A stretch of DNA of 64,000 bases from Neophaeotheca triangularis (lineage: Eukaryota). A model generated the notes under the pieces. That model was not told the origin of the DNA and did not search any database. It was given only the letters and a program-made list of their open reading frames with translations. The stretch lies in assembly GCA_054600435.1 (NCBI GenBank), contig BAAIJX010000012.1:248001-312000 (forward strand). Reading direction: 5' to 3'. Shown here piece by piece: positions 21,232 through 30,000 of this stretch; position 1 is the stretch's first letter, and each line of letters starts with the position of its first letter. Position numbers and translations under genes: made by a program.

Positions 21232-23496
21232 CTAAGCCGACGCAGCGACGGGGGCAGAACCCTTCTCCTGAGGCTGACCAGTTGAGACGGATGTCGCAGG
21301 GACGTCGCCAATGGTAGACTCGCCTTCGGTGGTTGGCTTGGTCTCAGCTGCGGCCTCGGCGGGAGTCTCCTTCTCCGCCTCAACCTTGTCTTCGGTGGAA
21401 GCGGGAACGGCATTCTCCTTCTTGCTGGTCTTGTCGGCGATTGGGGTGCCCTTGAAAGCCTTGCTAGCGCGACGAGAGATGTTCCCCAAGAAGCCAGACG
21501 TGCGCCTCTCCTCCTTCTTCGGCTCCTCAGCAGGCTTTTCAACAGACTTTTCGACGACTGGCTCAGTGGAAGTTGTAGTGGGCTCGGCGGTAGCGGCAGG
21601 CTCGGCAGGAGCAGCCTCTTCAGCCGGGGTAACGAACGGAGTAGACTCGACAGGCTTGGTCTGCTCAGCTGCCTTGTTCTGCTCAGCCGGCTTAGGAGCC
21701 TCCTTCATGCCGGCGGAAGGGGAGACGCTACGGTTGCGCTTGTTCATGAAACCGGACAAGAAACCGCTCTTCTCCTTGCCTGGGGTGCCAGCAGTGGTGT
21801 CTTTGGCGGCCTCAGCGGTGGAGGGTTCGCCGGCCTCAGTCGGCTTAGCGACAGATGGAGTCTCGATGGTTGGCTCAGAGGCGGCGGTGGTGCTGGGCTC
21901 GGGGATCTGCGGGGCAGTCTCGGAGACAGCGTCCTTTGGTGGCACGCTAGGCTTGAGCTCAGCGTCCTTTTGGTCCTTCTCCTTGGCCGGGCTCTTCATG
22001 TTGCCCCAGCCCTGCTTGAAGGAGCCGAAGATGCTGCTGCGCTTGTTGGCCTTGGGCCTGTCAGCAGTGCCCTGCTCAGCGGGCGAGGCGGTAGTTGCTT
22101 CAGTGTCCTTCTTCTCCTCCACTGGTGCGACCATGGCACGTTCAGCGGTGGAAGGAGCATCAAGCGCAGCACCACCAACAGCAGCAGTGGGAGCCGCCTC
22201 GTCGGTCTTCTCATTTTCCTTGTCGGCTTTCGCCTCCTCAGTCTTCTCTTCAGCCTTGTCTTCAGCCTTCTCCTCCTTGTTCTCGGCCTTGTCGGCCTTC
22301 TCCTCTTTCTTAGTCTCTGCCTTGGCCTCGACCTCTTCCTTCTTGCCCTTTAGGCGGTCGAGCATGCCACGAGAAGTGGAGCGGCTCTTGTTCTTCTTAG
22401 TCTTGTCCTCGTCACTGTTGCTCGAGGCGGAGCCAGCGCGCTTAGCGCCCTCAACATTGTCTACATCGGTGCTCTTCTTGGGTGCGGACTGGCTGCGCTT
22501 CGCGGCCGTGCCGGAAGCGACAGCAGCATTACCAGCCATGATGTTCGGCTTGTCTGGTTCAACATGTTCTGTAAGTACTGTGGTCGTTCGAGCTACTCTA
22601 AATCCTGGTCCGTCCTGCAGAAAATGGTACGAAACGCCAGGGGGGCTGGGGGTGATGTAACGGGGGAACATACTCAGCTTCTCCATCTCGGTCTTGTAGC
22701 CTTCGCTATCACGCACGCTCTCCTTGGAAGCCTTACCCAGCTCCATGGCCTTTTCAATCGTCATGAACCAGCCGTCACGCTCGGCATCGCTGTTCGCCTT
22801 GAAAGTGTGCTGCTGGTTGTGGAGCTTGAACTGGAACTCATGGTTCTGCGCCTTCTTGAGCTCACTAGCGTCGTAGAGAGCAATCACACTGGCAGGCTTG
22901 GAGCGGTTGGTCTCACCCTTCTTGTTGAAGAAAAGGAGGCCCTTGCCGGTCTGGCTGGCCCAGGCGACGACAGGGTGAGCGACATCGGGCTTCTCGCCGC
23001 GCATGTAAATGTCCATGTGCTGGGGGGTAGTTGCATCGTCACTCAACCAAAACTCACGCTTGGAGAAAGTAAGCTTGCTGTATAGGGTTAGCAGGCGAGT
23101 AGGGGCGTTGGGGAACCATTGCAGGGGCACTGACTTGAGCAGACCGGGCGCCTTGTACCCAAGGACACCCTCAGTCACAGGCTCAACAGATTTCTTCTCC
23201 TCCTCAACAGTGGCGGCGCCGGCTTCGGGTGTGGTCTCCTCCTTGGTGTCCTTGGAGGATTCGGCGGTAGTGGAGTCTTGCTTCACCTCCTCCGAAGTAG
23301 CGGCGTCCGTAGTCTTGGCCTCGCCGACAGTGGGCTCTGTGGTGGTGGCAGCAGACTCAGTGGCGGGAGCAGAGGTTGCTGCAGTGTCGGTGGGCTGGGT
23401 AGATGTAGAAGTGGGCTCGGCGTTGTTGATGATGGTTCCGGTTGGCTCTGTAGCAGAAGCAGCGGGGGCCGTGTTCTGCTCGGCGGTTGCAGACAT
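21232..23496 (-). CDS. PH-domain protein with long acidic/Ala-Thr-Pro disordered regions (Meu6-like)
   Basis: PH-like core EGVLGYKAPG...VAWASQTGKGLLFF...HTFKANSDAERDGWFMTIE. Predicted introns 23078-23134 and 22554-22673 have canonical donors, branch sites and acceptors. Confidence 0.8.
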   Translation of the reverse strand: MSATAEQNTAPAASATEPTGTIINNAEPTSTSTQPTDTAATSAPATESAATTTEPTVGEAKTTDAATSEEVKQDSTTAESSKDTKEETTPEAGAATVEEEKKSVEPVTEGVLGYKAPGLLKSVPLQWFPNAPTRLLTLYSKLTFSKREFWLSDDATTPQHMDIYMRGEKPDVAHPVVAWASQTGKGLLFFNKKGETNRSKPASVIALYDASELKKAQNHEFQFKLHNQQHTFKANSDAERDGWFMTIEKAMELGKASKESVRDSEGYKTEMEKLSMFPRYITPSPPGVSYHFLQDGPGFRVARTTTVLTEHVEPDKPNIMAGNAAVASGTAAKRSQSAPKKSTDVDNVEGAKRAGSASSNSDEDKTKKNKSRSTSRGMLDRLKGKKEEVEAKAETKKEEKADKAENKEEKAEDKAEEKTEEAKADKENEKTDEAAPTAAVGGAALDAPSTAERAMVAPVEEKKDTEATTASPAEQGTADRPKANKRSSIFGSFKQGWGNMKSPAKEKDQKDAELKPSVPPKDAVSETAPQIPEPSTTAASEPTIETPSVAKPTEAGEPSTAEAAKDTTAGTPGKEKSGFLSGFMNKRNRSVSPSAGMKEAPKPAEQNKAAEQTKPVESTPFVTPAEEAAPAEPAATAEPTTTSTEPVVEKSVEKPAEEPKKEERRTSGFLGNISRRASKAFKGTPIADKTSKKENAVPASTEDKVEAEKETPAEAAAETKPTTEGESTIGDVPATSVSTGQPQEKGSAPVAASA

Positions 23497-23908
23497 ATTG
23501 GCTGTTTGTGAAGCTACCTGTTACTGTAAGCTTGAGTAGGAAGAAGCGGCAAGGTGATGAGCGGAAACACACGCGTGGCAAGCAGGTTTTATCGCGGCAA
23601 TGGGTATCTCAATGAGTACTATGTATGGGTAAAGCGAGCAGAGAATAGAGGTGGCGTCGTCGATGGCTGAGGTCGCTAGCAGACAGGGCAGAAGGCACAG
23701 CAAATAGCTACTGTATACTGCAATCAAGCTCAAGCTCAAGCTCGTGGCGCGGTCAGTCGAATAAGGCGAGGTAAAGGTGAAGGAGCAGAAGAAAGCGTGA
23801 TGATGAGACGAGAAGAGTCTGGCAAGTTTGGTGGAAGGAATGGAAGGGTAGAAGTTCAAGAGCAAGCTGGCCGTGGCTCTTGCTTTTTAGCGAAATTGGC
23901 AGGCAAAT

Positions 23909-23938: not shown

Positions 23939-25601
23939 TTTCCCAATACCAATACTCAGGTCCGGCGGCGGCATTATTGAAACACCACCCCCATAATCTT
24001 CCAACGACTCGTCCAGAACACTGCTCCCCCGTTGGTCGGAGCTTGCCTTGTTGACATGTTAGTACGTACTACTGTACTACTCCCAAGGCCCAACAGGAGA
24101 CAGGTAATAATAATAAATACCAAATAAATAAATAACAGGAGAAGATCAAGTCGACAAGACGACCGACCAAAGACAGTGAGTGGAGGCAGGCCAGCCGACC
24201 ACACATGTTACATAAGTACAGTATCGATCGACATGTACAACAAGCTGACCAAGCGAAACCGACAAGGAAGAGGCACAGGTGATGGAGGGCGGCCAAGCCA
24301 CACGACTGGAGCGGAAAGCAACAAGTACTGTAACCACTGCTGCAAAACAAGTCAGACGTCTGGCTCAGCATTCAAGGAGGAGGTGGTGAGAAAACAATCG
24401 ACGTTTTATTAATGAATAGAGCCGCCGCGTTGAGTATGAAACGACTTCAGGGAGAGTTCCCTAGTTAGTACTAGTAGTACCAGCTGGGTATACTGCCGTA
24501 TACTTCTCGGTATCGCCCCGTAGCGCTCTCGCCTGAGTCGCGTCTCGCACAGAGCACATGTTTCCGAACCCGCCGAGCCTGAGGTGTCTGGTGTGACCCT
24601 GACCCACTGCTCGAGCCTCCGAGATTATTGGCCAAGAGCTCTGCCTTGCGTGTGCGACCTACGGTGCTACCTTAATTTACCACCTAGGTATACCTCCATA
24701 CAAGTAGTAAGTACCTACCTAGTACTAAGTAGTAACTCTTACATACCCCTTCTACCGCCGTTCCCGCCTCCTTCTCCTCCTCCTTCTCCGGTGCTCCCTA
24801 GAGACTAGGATAGTAGTCTAGTACCTTGGCGTTGCCGAAGCTCCATGTCTGAGCGTCGGGTGACTGACGTGAGGTGTGTGAGACCCGGGCTGTCTTCACG
24901 TTTCGAAACCCGCTTGAGACTTCCTCATCAATCACTCACTTCACCTCTGACTCTGGGACATGTTGAGTTAGTGTAGGGAGAAAGTGTAACGGTAGCCACC
25001 GGACGGGACTCTTCTTCGTATCAAGGTAACTAGTAATATTGACCGTACGTAACCACCCAAGGCATCTTCAGCAATTGCTTTGGGAGTCAAAAAGACCCAA
25101 CACCTCCATACATGTAATTCAAGGAATATTCACACCAGTACTCAGACATGTGAACCACTGTCGCGTGACAAGCAGAGAATCCAATGTGCAGCCACTTATC
25201 AAGCTGCTATGTAACGGTATCTAGTCCAAGTACCCCAAGTATCGACACTACCAAGCCTCAATTCGACACCATGAACACTTAAAATTGCATTGCAAGCAAC
25301 CATTCTTCAGACGGTCGACCGCGAAGAAGTACGCCTGTGCGCCATGCTATGCTCGATGGAACGCTGCTCAGCATTCCGCTTCCTAGCGCCAGTCAAAAGC
25401 TCATCCCAATCCCCCTTCTCCTTGGGCGCAGAATCCATAGCACTAGCACCAAGCCCCGTATGCCGTTTCCGCGGCACCCCAAAACCCATCGGACCCGCTC
25501 CCATGCCCTTCCAGACCCCCTCGTTGCGCACAGCCATGCGCTGCATCCCCGCGGCCAGCGAGACCGTCGAGGACGCGGCTGAGGAGGGTTTCAAAAGGGA
25601 C

Positions 25602-25628
25602 GAAGCAGAAGCAGAAGCAGAAGCAGAA
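25602..25628. repeat. (GAAGCA)4 hexamer repeat
   Basis: Visible directly downstream of the VPS26 stop. Reads SASASAS in the VPS26 frame. Confidence 0.85.
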
Positions 25629-25681
25629 GAAGAAACACCATAAACACCTTCATTACGCCCTCGTAGCTCGTTAGCGTCTTC

Positions 25682-26679
25682 TCAGCTCATCTGCACCTCT
25701 TTGGCCTGCCGCGTCGCGAGCTCGTTGTCCTCGGGCGCTTGCCGATAGAGAACGATTTCGCTCTGCTTGAAGTAGCGGCGGGCGTCTTCGTCAATGAGGA
25801 CAAGCGAGAGGTAGTAGCGTGTGCTGAATTTCTTGTTCACATCGCGGAATGTCGGTGTGAGGTCGAACCCCCCGAGGAAAAGGCGAATGGGTATTGTTTC
25901 GCCGCGCGAGGGCGAGCCGTCCATGATCTCGAAGCGCACGAGAGTCTCCGATTCGTTATATTGGTTTGGCGGAGCACCTGTCGTTTCGCGTCGGATGATT
26001 GACAGCTCCATGTGTCTAATCTTGAGCCGCACGAGCAGGAAGTAGATGCGGCCGACTATGACGTCTTTCAAATGATACTTGCTCTTGCTGTACTCGAACT
26101 CAATGTGTAGGCAGTCTTCAATACCAACGTCCATCTTGATGACGCTGTTGGACTCGGGCGGTTGGCGGTAGCTGTAGACCCAGATATCCTTCTCGCGAAC
26201 GACATCGGCCATACGGCGAGAGACGGTGACGCGGAGGAAGTATCGCAGCTTGACGTTGATGCCATGGTAGGACTCGTAGGCTTTCTCGACGTTCTTGAAA
26301 GCAAAAGGGAGGGTGACGGGGTGCTGCAGCTCGCCCGGAGACGCAAGCTCGGTCTGCAATGATAAGAACTCGTGGTGTGTCCCGCGGTCGAAGAACATCT
26401 CTGCCATGCCACTAGGTCAGTGATGGAGCTTCCTGCAACGTGATGCTGTCCCGGTTTACCTATTGTGCCCACGAATTGCACCTTGATGCCCGTGTGCTCC
26501 AGCCTCTTGCCATCTTTGGGACGGATAGTCACGGCTCCTCTCACACTCTCGCCATCGAGGTAGAGGGGCGCCTTTTCCCGCCTGTTCTTGTCGAGCTTCA
26601 CGTCTACCGTCTGCCTGTCGTCGGTGTCTTGGAGAACAATGTCGATGTCCAGAGGCGTGCTGAACGAGAAGAGAGACAT
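25682..26679 (-). CDS. VPS26: Retromer subunit Vps26
   Basis: KRLEHTGIKVQFVGTIE, IKMDVGIEDCLHIEFEYSKSKYHLKDVIVGRIYFLLVR and EIMDGSPSRGETIPIRLFL. Intron 26401-26459. Confidence 0.96.
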
Positions 26680-27084
26680 GTTGGCGGTGATTCGAGCTGT
26701 TCAGAGCCTACTGCGCCTGCAAATCAGGCTCACAGATGGTGCAAAGGTGAGTTTCGATTGGATACAAGAGTTGTACTGGGTAACAGCCTGGCTGTTTGGG
26801 GGTGGTCAAGGCATTGGCTTCAGCGTGGGCCGAACTTACACGTGATTGGTCGGAAGGGCACTCCGCCAGTGTATGGACGCCGGCCAGACCGCGATGAAGT
26901 CGTTGCATCCATGCATGGTACCAGATTCTCTGCATCACGAGCAAAGATGTAGTCTGGCTCACCACAGCAGCTCGAATGATTTAAATTCTATACAGGTCAA
27001 AAGCAATTTATTGAAAGACCCACCAACGCCCCCGCTCACTTGAAGTACGCTCACCACAGCCTCCCAAACACCCCGTCCATTCCA

Positions 27085-30000
27085 TCAACTAGCAGTAATC
27101 AAAACATAACTAGTGATAGCATTCATCCTCTCCGCACTCAACTTCATGCCCACCTTCAACAACTCCTTAGCAACCTCGCCATCGTTCTCCTGTAGCTCTT
27201 CCCACTTTGCCTTCGTCAACAACCAAGCCACAACCTCCTTCTCCGCGACAACTTTACTCGTTCGCCGCGTCTCACTGAAGAACGGCAGTTCACCGCAAGT
27301 AGTACCAGAGACGATACTCTCGTGATAAGCACCCTGATCGAGATCGTATTCAGCGCGCAGCATGCCTGATTGCAGGAGGTAAAAGCCGTCGGGCTCGTCG
27401 CCACGGGAGTAGAGCGTCTCGCCCGCTGTGTAGCAGGCTTTGGTGAAATAAGGAGTGAGTCGGAACCAGAAATCTTCATTTTTGTTGGTGAGGTCCTGGA
27501 AAGCCTGGAGAAGGAGGGGGAGGGGCTGTTTGAAATTCTGCCATTTGCTCTGCTCGGAGGCTCCGGCCTCGGTGATGGTGGTGGCAGCGGCTTGATGAAG
27601 GAAGTTGCGGCGAGGTGAACCGACTGAGCCGTGGAAGGGGGAAACGGACAGGTTTTGGGGTTGCTGTGGTTGGGGCACTGGAACCGGGGGAGATTCTTCA
27701 CCTTTTGAGCCAGGGGCTTGCTTTTCGTTAAGGATGACGAGAAGATCGTTCTCGCAGGCTTCGAGTGCGCCATTGAGGTCTTCGTATAGCTCCGGGGCAG
27801 GGAGCTCAGTACTTTCGTCTGGTTCGAAAAGACCAACCATTTGCAAGCTCCTGCCAACGTCGTCGTAGAGTGAGACGCCAGCTAAGACCATCGTCACGCC
27901 TCGTCTGTCCAATATACGATTCATCCGCGTGAAGGCTTCTGCAGCTGAAAAGTCCAGACCGGTGACGTGCGAAAAATCTACAATTAAGAATCGAATCGGC
28001 TCCTTGGCAAAGCGTTCCTCCTCGATAGTTGCTCGCACCTTCTTCTCAACCTTGACGATACTACCAAAGAAAAGATAGCCTCCAAGCTTGACGATCCGGA
28101 TTTGCTTGCCAACTTTGTGCAAGTAGTTGCGTTGGCGAGGGTGACGGCGGACAGTGGACTCGGCCACTTCTCCAGAAAACTCGGCACGAATGACGGTCTT
28201 GCGAGATGTCTGGACAACGTAGACAAGGCATGCCAGCCCAATGCCCACCGCAATGCCCACGACAAAGTCGTAGATGCCCATGACCAAGGCGATGGTGAAA
28301 ATGGTGAAATACTCTAAGCGGCCTAGTTTGCCCCAAGTCGAGTATAATGCTTCGTTGGCAAGGTCAATACCAAGGTAGTAGATAAGCGTGCCAACCACCA
28401 TCACAGGCACATAGCCTATCACGATGGGACCAGCTACCCAAAGTCCGAAAGTAGCAGCTGCGAGAAGGAAGCCCGCCAGTCTACTGTTGCCACCGGTATC
28501 GATGAACAGGGCGCTGTTAACGAAGACCAGGTAGTTTTGAATACTACCCACGCATCCAGAGAGGGTATTAGACACGCCATGGAGAAGTAGTTCGCGGTTG
28601 ATGCTGACATTGTCCTCTTGTACCACCATGGCCAGATTGGGAACGTTAATTGGAACATGCAGGATGCCGAAGAATGTTAGAGCCAGCTGGGAGGGTACTG
28701 TCATCCAGATGGCACTCCAGTCGACTAAGCTGAACTTGTAGTAGCTGTAGAAGTTGTAGAAAGGTACTCCAGCCGCTGGAGCCTCGAAGACCCATCCCAG
28801 GTCTCGCAAATCTTCCATCTTAAGAGCAGGTACAGCAGTTACAACGATGTAAAAGATGGCTGTAATGCCCACGTAGTAAGCTGGTACGAGCCATGGTCGA
28901 TCGTAGTAGCTCTTAATGACCATTAGTAGAACGGCCATGCCGAGAGGAGGTATCCAAAGCGGTGCGGTCTCCTTAGTAAAGAGTCTGTGGAAGACCTCGG
29001 CAGTGAATTCAAAGTTCCCTGGTAAGCGCGCAGAAACTTCGATCCCAGTCAGAAAGAGGAAAATGCCGACTCCTCCGATACAGCCGGTCAGGATCGAGTG
29101 AGGAAAGAAGTTGACAAGCGTCCCAAGTTTCGCGCTACCAAGTCCGAAGAAGACAAGTCCAGTGAGTATGGAGCTCATAGAGTAAGACGTGATCACCGTG
29201 GCTCGAAGCGCATCTGGATTTCCAGTGCCCATTCTCTGCATCACCATGTACTAGCGTTGACCGTCAGCAAGTCACGAAACGCGCTGCATGAGGGGCAGTG
29301 TGGACACTTACTGTCATCTTGTGGAAGAAAGGAACCACCTCTATCATCTCTGAGCCAACACCACCTCGAAAAATGCTGCCGCTGGAGTACACCAGCTGGG
29401 CTATTATACAACTGACGTAGAACATCGAGACCCCGTCTGGCCCCATCTGCGAGAATACTTCTTCGCCGAGAGGAAACAGTATGATGCCGTATGACAGTGC
29501 ATCGAGGAGATTGAGCAAAAGACCGAGGAACACAGCAGGTAAGGTTCTTGCTGGCTCGACAAGACCCTTTCGCACAATGTGCTGCACATTCCAATGTCTG
29601 GGGTTGGCAACATGCTTGGCTCTTGCTGCTGCCTTGTGAAGTGACGGATACGAGCGATTGATCGAATCCATAGCTCCAGGCTTATGCAATGGTTGCGCCT
29701 CGACGTCCTGCGCAACCTGTTCGCGAATTGGTTTGCGGTGAGACGACGTCAATCGCTCTCTCACCAACAAAGGACTGGCCTCGCTAGGTCCGTCTGCATC
29801 GTCTGTATCCTCGTTGCTAACGACGACGTCAGGCAGGTTGTGTCGAGTACTTGGCCGTCGGCGTGAATGTGAATGACTTTCCCCACTATCCGGCAAAGGA
29901 GGGGAAGATTTGAAGAGCTCACTCAGATTTGAAGGGGGTGCTGGATGTGCTTGAGTGCCATCAGGGGTGACGGGCTCTGAGCGTTCCTCAATGTCACTGT

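Follow-up and report, generated by a model that had tools for sequence, protein, structure and literature searches.

An in-frame extension behind the VPS26 stop codon in Neophaeotheca triangularis and related Dothideomycetidae, probably expressed by programmed readthrough

The gene encoding the retromer subunit VPS26 of Neophaeotheca triangularis lies on the minus strand of a stretch of 64,000 nucleotides (nt; contig BAAIJX010000012.1 of assembly GCA_054600435.1, positions 248,001 to 312,000), which is referred to here as the window. The TGA stop codon of this gene is followed, in the same frame, by 124 sense codons, and a C-terminal extension of this kind, shared by several orders of the Dothideomycetidae, is real, selected, and apparently undescribed. 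That a long VPS26 is produced by some route is very likely, and the route is probably programmed readthrough of the stop codon, which, judging from the comparison of sequences, would generate a minor long isoform with a disordered, motif-bearing tail.

The VPS26 stop codon and the frame beyond it

In a Pfam search, the upstream open reading frame (ORF) was recovered as Vps26 (PF03643) with 341 bits, against a cut-off of 27 (E 4e-102). The gene, which is found in a single copy in the genome (G000), runs from its ATG across one 59-nt intron to the TGA (Table 1), and its spliced product of 312 amino acids (aa) is identical (312/312) to the annotated N. triangularis protein P0130. The ends of the orthologues were compared in 120 of 308 VPS26 homologues, among which the proteins of the Dothideomycete type terminate exactly 30 residues from where YFKQSEI starts, in agreement with the final Ser of the window. 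This end, usually Ser or Pro, is also found in lineages that have no extension (window 25685–25774, P0001–P0049), whereas the tails of the other VPS26 classes are variable. The TGA at 25684–25682 is the normal VPS26 stop. The stop loss considered in a preliminary description of this DNA can be set aside, because the orthologues end at the same codon, with no lineage-specific gain or loss of a stop. The exception among the homologues is P0021 (Oleoguttula sp. CCFEE 5521, KAK6443444.1), which has a tail with GNWDELL that is weakly similar (pairwise E 0.002) to the extension of the window (GDWDELL).

The extension itself is as the preliminary description had given it, with CAG ATG AGC TGA GAA GAC GCT AAC continuing without a stop from 25681 to 25310, and the same translation. 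The repeats embedded in this frame do preserve it, as in the case of the Ser/Ala (TCT GCT) run, while the RNEGV peptide does occur twice in the window, but is absent from the relatives, and both repeats appear to be window-specific filler. Considered by itself, the open frame is moderately beyond chance and suggestive only (P about 0.01–0.02 in shuffles and Markov simulations), and its significance derives from the comparative data.

These data were obtained with a degenerate pattern of the VPS26 C-terminus, in which the stop was left unspecified, and which recovered 82 metagenome loci. The arrangement of the window is shared by 15 of these loci, in which a TAG or TGA is followed by E-x-A-N-E (one ends after E-G-A). 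Twelve are complete and remain open for 86–194 codons, and the other three end at contig edges, open throughout what exists. In the remaining 67 loci, by contrast, the frame is open for a median of 10 codons after the stop (maximum 93). The 13 complete extensions (12 loci and the window) all combine the conserved first stop with an in-frame ORF that has no intervening stop, and all 13 contain G/C-[DNE]-W-[DE]-[DE]-L in frame 0, a motif that none of the 67 other loci has within 1000 nt, whichever frame is read. As for the stop, the 16 element-bearing loci (the 15 and the window) have TAG in 12 cases, TGA in four, and TAA in none.

By best named hit, the extension-bearing loci belong to Cladosporium (L011, L018, L033, L045, L066), other Cladosporiaceae-like fungi (L004, L009), Friedmanniomyces (L021, L022, L063), a Salinomyces/Hortaea-like lineage (L069), and Mycosphaerellaceae-like fungi (L026, L031, L052), while L027, too short to assign, has an extension of the Cladosporium type. 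The orders represented are the Cladosporiales, the Mycosphaerellales, and the Neophaeothecales, which include N. triangularis. As several loci come from the same or sibling species, they correspond to about six to seven independent lineages. The extension is absent from Aureobasidium-like, Myriangium-like, and more distant loci, as well as from a P0156-type lineage (L049, L075). In a tree of 28 loci, all the element-bearing loci form one clade together with L049, with a support of 55, so that the boundary of this clade is provisional. The loci L049 and L075 (identical to P0156), placed among the element-bearing loci, have AGC TAG with neither element nor extension, and under this weak tree support a loss of both is possible in their lineage.

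The extension evolves as protein. The ratio of nonsynonymous to synonymous substitution rates (dN/dS), estimated from protein-guided alignments that excluded the first nine codons, was obtained for nine of 13 pairs (0.12–0.39), and in the four pairs that align well it is 0.12 in L011/L033 (Fisher p 0.009) and L011/L027 (p 1e-11), 0.15 in L031/L052 (p 5e-10), and 0.17 in L004/L009 (p 2e-16). In the ungapped pair L011/L027, the 46 differences are distributed as 6/9/31 over codon positions 1/2/3 (p 5e-6), and the changed codons are synonymous in 28 of 40 cases in frame 0, compared with 4/41 and 4/39 in the other sense frames. The 17 internal indels of the extension all have lengths divisible by three, compared with 8 of 29 in the 300-nt stretch past the second stop (six pairs), and the same difference is found in four less-overlapping pairs (11/11 against 7/21, p 0.0004). 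Nucleotide identity is also higher in the extension than past the second stop (0.98 against 0.72 in L011/L033, and 0.85 against 0.46 in L011/L027). The conservation of frame in orthologous 3' regions, with dN/dS well below 1, which the preliminary description had proposed as a check, is thus observed, and its conditional, C-terminally extended retromer subunit is supported to this extent. In L045 (914–1249, Cladosporium type), C-D-W-D-E-L replaces G-D-W-D-E-L, the sole coding difference from L011 in the extension, which represents either a polymorphism or an assembly error.

Contigs of a near strain, assembled from four marine metatranscriptome runs of one study (with small word shares and unproven RNA origin), differ from the window at three listed positions, all synonymous third positions (about 0.02 by chance); two more differences, outside the listed three, lie close to the ends of one contig. 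These contigs cover 25256–25592, past the second stop, and thus extend beyond the transcript end before about 25400 that had been envisaged as an objection, subject to the same reservation on their origin.

The element around the stop codon

The region around the stop is conserved at the level of the nucleotide sequence. In ten sequences, the third position is invariant in 8 of 10 codons of the element (-1, +1 to +9), against 0 of the 24 core codons just upstream, and at codons +2, +6, and +8 the third base is fixed although the amino acid varies. The full consensus of about 30 nt is found in 14 loci and the window (Table 1), the fifteenth locus being incomplete at the end of its contig. A branch-point-like hexamer, GCTAAC, does lie just past the stop, at +7 to +12, as described previously.

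Readthrough signals have been classified from viruses as type I (UAG-CAAUYA), type II (UGA followed by CGG or CUA), and type III (UAG-G plus pseudoknot; PMC4615788). The base at +4 is G in all 16 loci, followed by GAA NRC, so that neither the CUA or CGG of type II nor the CARYYA of type I is present, and the earlier statement that the context is not the classic UGA-CUA also holds. The UAG-G tetranucleotide of type III occurs in 12 loci, and UGA-G in four, including the window. This context is therefore outside types I and II, and the conserved structure that belongs to type III was not detected.

The long pattern of the element matches the genome once, at two mismatches or fewer. As a genome-wide motif the element was rejected, given that a short pattern gave one extra match with two mismatches, compared with three control matches. 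Single-sequence folds mostly contain a short hairpin with RCGCU in the 5' arm, the 3' arms of which shift, with non-significant energies. A local consensus structure was rejected, since it amounts to an invariant 3-bp AGC/GCU pairing alone, without covariation, as was a long-range stem located by eye in the window (+6 to +28 with +105 to +129; p 0.08 against codon-shuffled targets). No Rfam match was found over 24800–27200.

Routes past the stop codon

Under programmed readthrough, the canonical stop would end most translation, yielding the 312-aa VPS26, while a fraction of the ribosomes would insert an amino acid at UGA, in the window, or UAG, in most relatives, promoted by the element. Translation would then continue for 86–194 codons to the second stop, producing, in this genome, a long isoform of 437 aa, in which a flexible linker would be combined with a helix motif (G-D-W-D-E-L-[FL]) and a C-terminus of basic, Ser/Thr character, so that one gene would supply both a short and a tailed retromer subunit, like the mammalian paralogues VPS26A and VPS26B. 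Readthrough would explain why the tail begins immediately behind the stop, and both UAG and UGA are tolerated, as near-cognate decoding would lead one to expect. Insertion of selenocysteine was not retained as an explanation, given that TAG is the stop in most loci, and the ascomycetes are not known to have selenocysteine machinery. Fungi are known to make isoforms by readthrough (PMC4207609), conserved tails produced in this way have precedents (PMC4207609, PMC3840789), and, among the UAG contexts of yeast, UAG-G is the one with the most leakage (Table 1 of PMC4615788).

A number of observations weigh against this interpretation. In the same yeast data (Table 1 of PMC4615788), UGA-G, which is found in the window, is the UGA context with the least leakage. 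The stop context matches none of the known types, and the invariant GCTAAY, which fits the branch-point consensus, is not explained by readthrough. The consensus stem reaches only -0.7 kcal/mol with no covarying pair (pseudoknots not being modelled explicitly), single-sequence fold z-scores range from +0.9 to -2.1, with one of ten below -2, and a long-range duplex is significant in none of 12 loci, with no recurring partner. No dN/dS was obtained for four of the 13 pairs (three saturated, and L011/L045 with one nonsynonymous and no synonymous change); the ratio rises to 0.39 in distant pairs, in which protein-guided alignment biases it downward, and all the pairs are formed by relatives, the window having no close DNA relative. 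The metatranscriptome contigs nowhere span 25640–25935, which includes the stop, a gap that is evidence neither way. As no read crosses the stop, we infer the bypass mechanism, together with the causal role of the element and the functions of the tail motifs.

The branch-point-like hexamer raises the alternative of splicing, in which alternative or non-canonical removal of the stop, with GCTAAY as the branch point, would join the extension to VPS26. The invariance of GCTAAY fits this, and public models (P0021, P0179, P0180, P0181) do attach the extension through predicted introns. The joins of these models differ, however (APEN/RRLG and DEDAR/SNG), and the second removes the conserved last strand and helix. 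After the hexamer, a common position and phase is found for a single AG, the GAG at +15, which follows the presumed branch A by four bases, and the donors that recur in the majority of loci are codons for Val (GTN CTN etc.), rather than splice consensus. In an exhaustive listing, no donor with splice consensus is common to the loci, the window has no consensus in-frame donor, and there are no joints in the RNA contigs, none of which covers the stop. The two GT...AG options in the preliminary description (49 nt, GT..AAG; 37 nt, GT..GAG, donor -12, acceptor +22) do shift the frame, but two in-frame options had been missed (39 nt, A/GCTGAG..AAG, and 30 nt, AG/GTGCAG..GAG), which have poor signals and occur in no relatives. 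Its view that simple splicing does not explain the extension is consistent with the absence of a shared donor or acceptor across the loci at the sequence level, and splicing is an unlikely explanation. Translation of the extension as a separate small protein downstream of VPS26, from its own ATG, by reinitiation, or from a non-AUG start, is considerably less likely still. Metagenome gene callers do report orphan ORFs of 60–156 aa (16 of 17 profile matches), and the ESM Atlas enters the extension from Met49, but the called starts lie 24–95 residues ahead of the motif, at no common position, and conservation sets in with codon +1, immediately behind the stop, in every case in the frame of VPS26. 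The independent gene starting at an internal ATG, foreseen as an alternative, is excluded in L022/L063 and L031, because in these loci no Met precedes the motif. An antisense gene or a non-coding element of the 3' untranslated region, finally, is very improbable as the source of the signal, and this reading is largely refuted on the sequences compared. The window has a plus-strand ORF of 122 codons (25275–25643), and the antisense shadow frame is open in the loci of the Cladosporium type, with 21 of 39 changes synonymous, but this frame is interrupted in 8 of 11 sequences by one to nine stops, some of which, in L031 and L069, lie opposite the motif, only one of the three strain differences is synonymous in antisense, compared with three of three in sense, and the ORF has no Pfam match, as the interval around it has none in Rfam.

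Adenosine-to-inosine (A-to-I) mRNA editing of UAG or UGA to UGG (Trp) in a developmental stage, with the element as the editing substrate, as in DBF2 of Fusarium, would produce the same long protein. The stops are TAG or TGA alone, with no TAA in 16 loci, and each is one edit from TGG; the 12 TAG loci match the fungal preference for U-1, R+1, and R+3 (PMC11156358), the invariant 3-bp AGC/GCU pairing would place the stop in a loop, and a disordered extension with a bias to TAG resembles DBF2 (PMC13123824). The absence of TAA is uninformative, however, because Dothideales/Myriangiales-like loci without the extension lack TAA too. In the window and in Friedmanniomyces, the stop is TGA, with G at -1 of the target A, so that the editing to UGG suggested in the preliminary description suits the 12 TAG loci, with U at -1, and is a weaker mechanism for the window, in which G rather than U precedes the target. 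In PMC11156358 and PMC11087585, the Sordariomycetes and Pyronema are the only fungi for which genome-wide editing is described, and the Ame1–Tad3 interaction is described as having arisen in the Sordariomycetes. The two DUF726 proteins of this genome have no MV, the residues of a Sordariomycete-type Ame1, at the key-residue position, a weak point, given that the position was inferred with no reference alignment. Editing is accordingly rated as improbable. The genome contains two genes of the DUF726 family (L086, L087).

Programmed readthrough at VPS26 can be compared with several known systems. It is like the fungal UGA-CU(A) readthrough of peroxisomal proteins (PMC4207609) in the conserved in-frame tail behind a conserved stop, where the long isoform is minor, as would be the case here, but differs in the lack of CUA, the prevalence of UAG, the absence of a peroxisomal targeting signal type 1 (PTS1), the tail of 86–194 aa with internal motifs, and an element of about 30 nt rather than a trinucleotide. 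The UAG-G start and the invariant 3' nucleotides recall viral type III (PMC4615788), whereas the same element also stands behind UGA here, and no conserved stem or pseudoknot was detected (without explicit modelling of pseudoknots). In the Sordariomycetes, stop-loss editing of DBF2 (PMC13123824) is also clade-wide, with a TAG-biased stop and a disordered extension, but VPS26 involves Dothideomycetes, TGA in two lineages, and strictly conserved motifs, in contrast with the poorly conserved DBF2 tail. The nearest fungal analogue is the YIP3/PRA1 frameshift of the Pezizomycotina (PMC3777964), in which a trafficking gene of the same fungal group is recoded into short and long forms, by a frameshift rather than a frame-0 stop bypass. 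The element is not shared with YIP3, which has no branch-like hexamer near its stop. In this genome, YIP3/PRA1 (L090, G000:C5, about 763145–765070, minus strand) ends in TAG, and a 496-codon ORF in the +1 frame overlaps it near TTTTTC AGA AGA, a layout which matches the Capnodiales +1 frameshift (PMC3777964). In mammals, a C-terminal tail also separates the two VPS26 forms, VPS26A and VPS26B (PMC5577995), which are encoded by two genes rather than one, and no similarity of tail sequence is claimed.

The tail and its genomic setting

The extension alone gave no matches at E<=10 among 115 candidates of the protein database, no match in Pfam, one chance-level match (E 0.92) among PDB sequences, and no usable feature match in the ESM Atlas, the structure rows of which were uninformative. 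Its motifs were examined in 27 tail sequences, found partly through the motif itself, which include ten from the loci, 16 orphan ORFs (P0182 and P0184 being duplicates of L004 and L052), and the tail of P0021; P0193, a Cys-rich repeat protein recovered by the profile search, was dropped as a false positive. Three residues of [KR]G[DNE]W[DG][DEN]L[FLY], namely G, W, and L, are invariant in this set, in which WxxL is found in 27/27 and W[DE][DE]L in 24/27, proportions to be read with the partial selection through the motif, and a terminal PTS1 ([SAC][KRH][LM]) in none of 27. The fraction of order-promoting residues is 0.16–0.21 in the tail, compared with 0.37 in the core. An AlphaFold model of the L031 readthrough product has a mean pLDDT (predicted local distance difference test) of 48 and a pTM (predicted template modelling score) of 0.36, and offers a weak hint of helices through the stop and over the motif.

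The G-D-W-D-E-L-[FL] helix motif is probably a partner-docking motif, and the basic Ser/Thr C-terminus is probably a phospho-switch. The W-x-x-L in its acidic context presumably resembles an Atg8-interacting motif, and D-D-L-F the retromer-binding repeats of the FAM21 type, while H-x-R-x-x-S would resemble an NDR-kinase site and the penultimate Thr a C-terminal 14-3-3 site, all of which we take to be leads only. The predicted helix and the conserved F and K-K that follow may indicate a partner other than Atg8. An intron divides the Atg8 gene of this genome. In mammals, the tail of VPS26B prevents CI-MPR from binding (PMC5577995), and a tailed VPS26 isoform could, therefore, by analogy, retune the choice of cargo or link the retromer to another pathway. 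The tail could alternatively destabilise the protein, as in yeast PDE2 and Fusarium DBF2, but binding is favoured because the motif is strictly conserved.

Table 1. Positions of the VPS26 features in the window.
Feature	Positions	Strand	Basis or comparison
VPS26 exon 1, from ATG	26460..26679	-	Pfam Vps26 positions 1-69; product = P0130, 312/312
VPS26 intron, 59 nt, GT..AG	26401..26459	-	Relatives L026, L031, L033, L069 without intron, open across site
VPS26 exon 2, end ...RQAKEVQMS	25685..26400	-	Pfam E 4e-102; Dothideomycete orthologues share end position
First (canonical) stop, TGA	25682..25684	-	TAG in 12/16 element-bearing loci
Candidate cis element AGC-[TAG/TGA]-GAA-NRC-GCT-AAY-GAG-MHA-CGA-NGG-MGY	25655..25687	-	14 loci and window
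GCTAAC hexamer in element, branch-point-like	25670..25675	-	GCTAAY in all loci long enough
In-frame extension, 124 codons	25310..25681	-	Under protein-coding selection; disorder predicted for the most part
Ser/Ala (TCT GCT) low-complexity repeat	25594..25641	-	Window-specific, frame-preserving
Motif K-G-D-W-D-E-L-L-x-x-x-x-K-R	25376..25417	-	Family [KR]G[DNE]W[DG][DEN]L[FLY]xx[CSA]xK[KR]; predicted short helix
Basic/Ser-Thr C-terminus HRRTSSRSTV	25310..25339	-	Family R-x-x-S-x-x-[TS]-[LIV]-COOH; 19/27 match
Second stop, TGA	25307..25309	-	Between-relative similarity falls shortly beyond

The protein P0001 has the VPS26 C-terminus of the window, but a different in-frame intron sequence, read through at the site of the intron, which would indicate a close relative or a divergent strain. 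A homocysteine S-methyltransferase-like gene flanks VPS26 as a divergent upstream neighbour in L018, L026, L033, L049, and L069, and lies downstream in Friedmanniomyces (L022), where model P0180 fuses both genes. In the window, the upstream neighbour is instead a sulfate-transporter/STAS/cNMP gene, and downstream of VPS26 there is a PH-domain protein (PF15406, PH_6; 21232–23520, minus strand), with a frame of 762 codons that runs through apparent in-frame introns.

Readthrough of VPS26 in fungi was not found in the open-access papers searched, although subscription papers and supplementary gene lists could still include this gene. A broader proposal, advanced here as a tentative possibility, is that the element of about 30 nt represents a new class of eukaryotic recoding signal, which would be sequence-based, with no stem-loop, CUA, or CARYYA, active behind both UAG and UGA, and perhaps mediated by a protein that reads the GCUAAY core. 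Such a signal would allow this Dothideomycete clade to switch its retromer between a short VPS26 and a form with a tail, which would contribute a docking motif (W-x-x-L) and an end regulated by phosphorylation, as a one-gene counterpart of VPS26A/B.

Through the extension, a core protein of trafficking would have a selected isoform, so far missing from annotations, in several orders, which include extremotolerant black yeasts and common leaf fungi, and present annotations either omit this isoform or add it through inconsistent, invented introns. Being short, fixed in sequence, and unlike the known classes of readthrough signal, the cis element is testable with reporters, and any outcome would be informative, whether a readthrough signal of a new kind, a first case of mRNA editing among Dothideomycetes, or a non-canonical splice. 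The two motifs of the tail provide concrete handles on the regulation of the fungal retromer and, if the reading of programmed readthrough is true, VPS26 would be the second recoded trafficking gene of the clade, beside the YIP3 frameshift.

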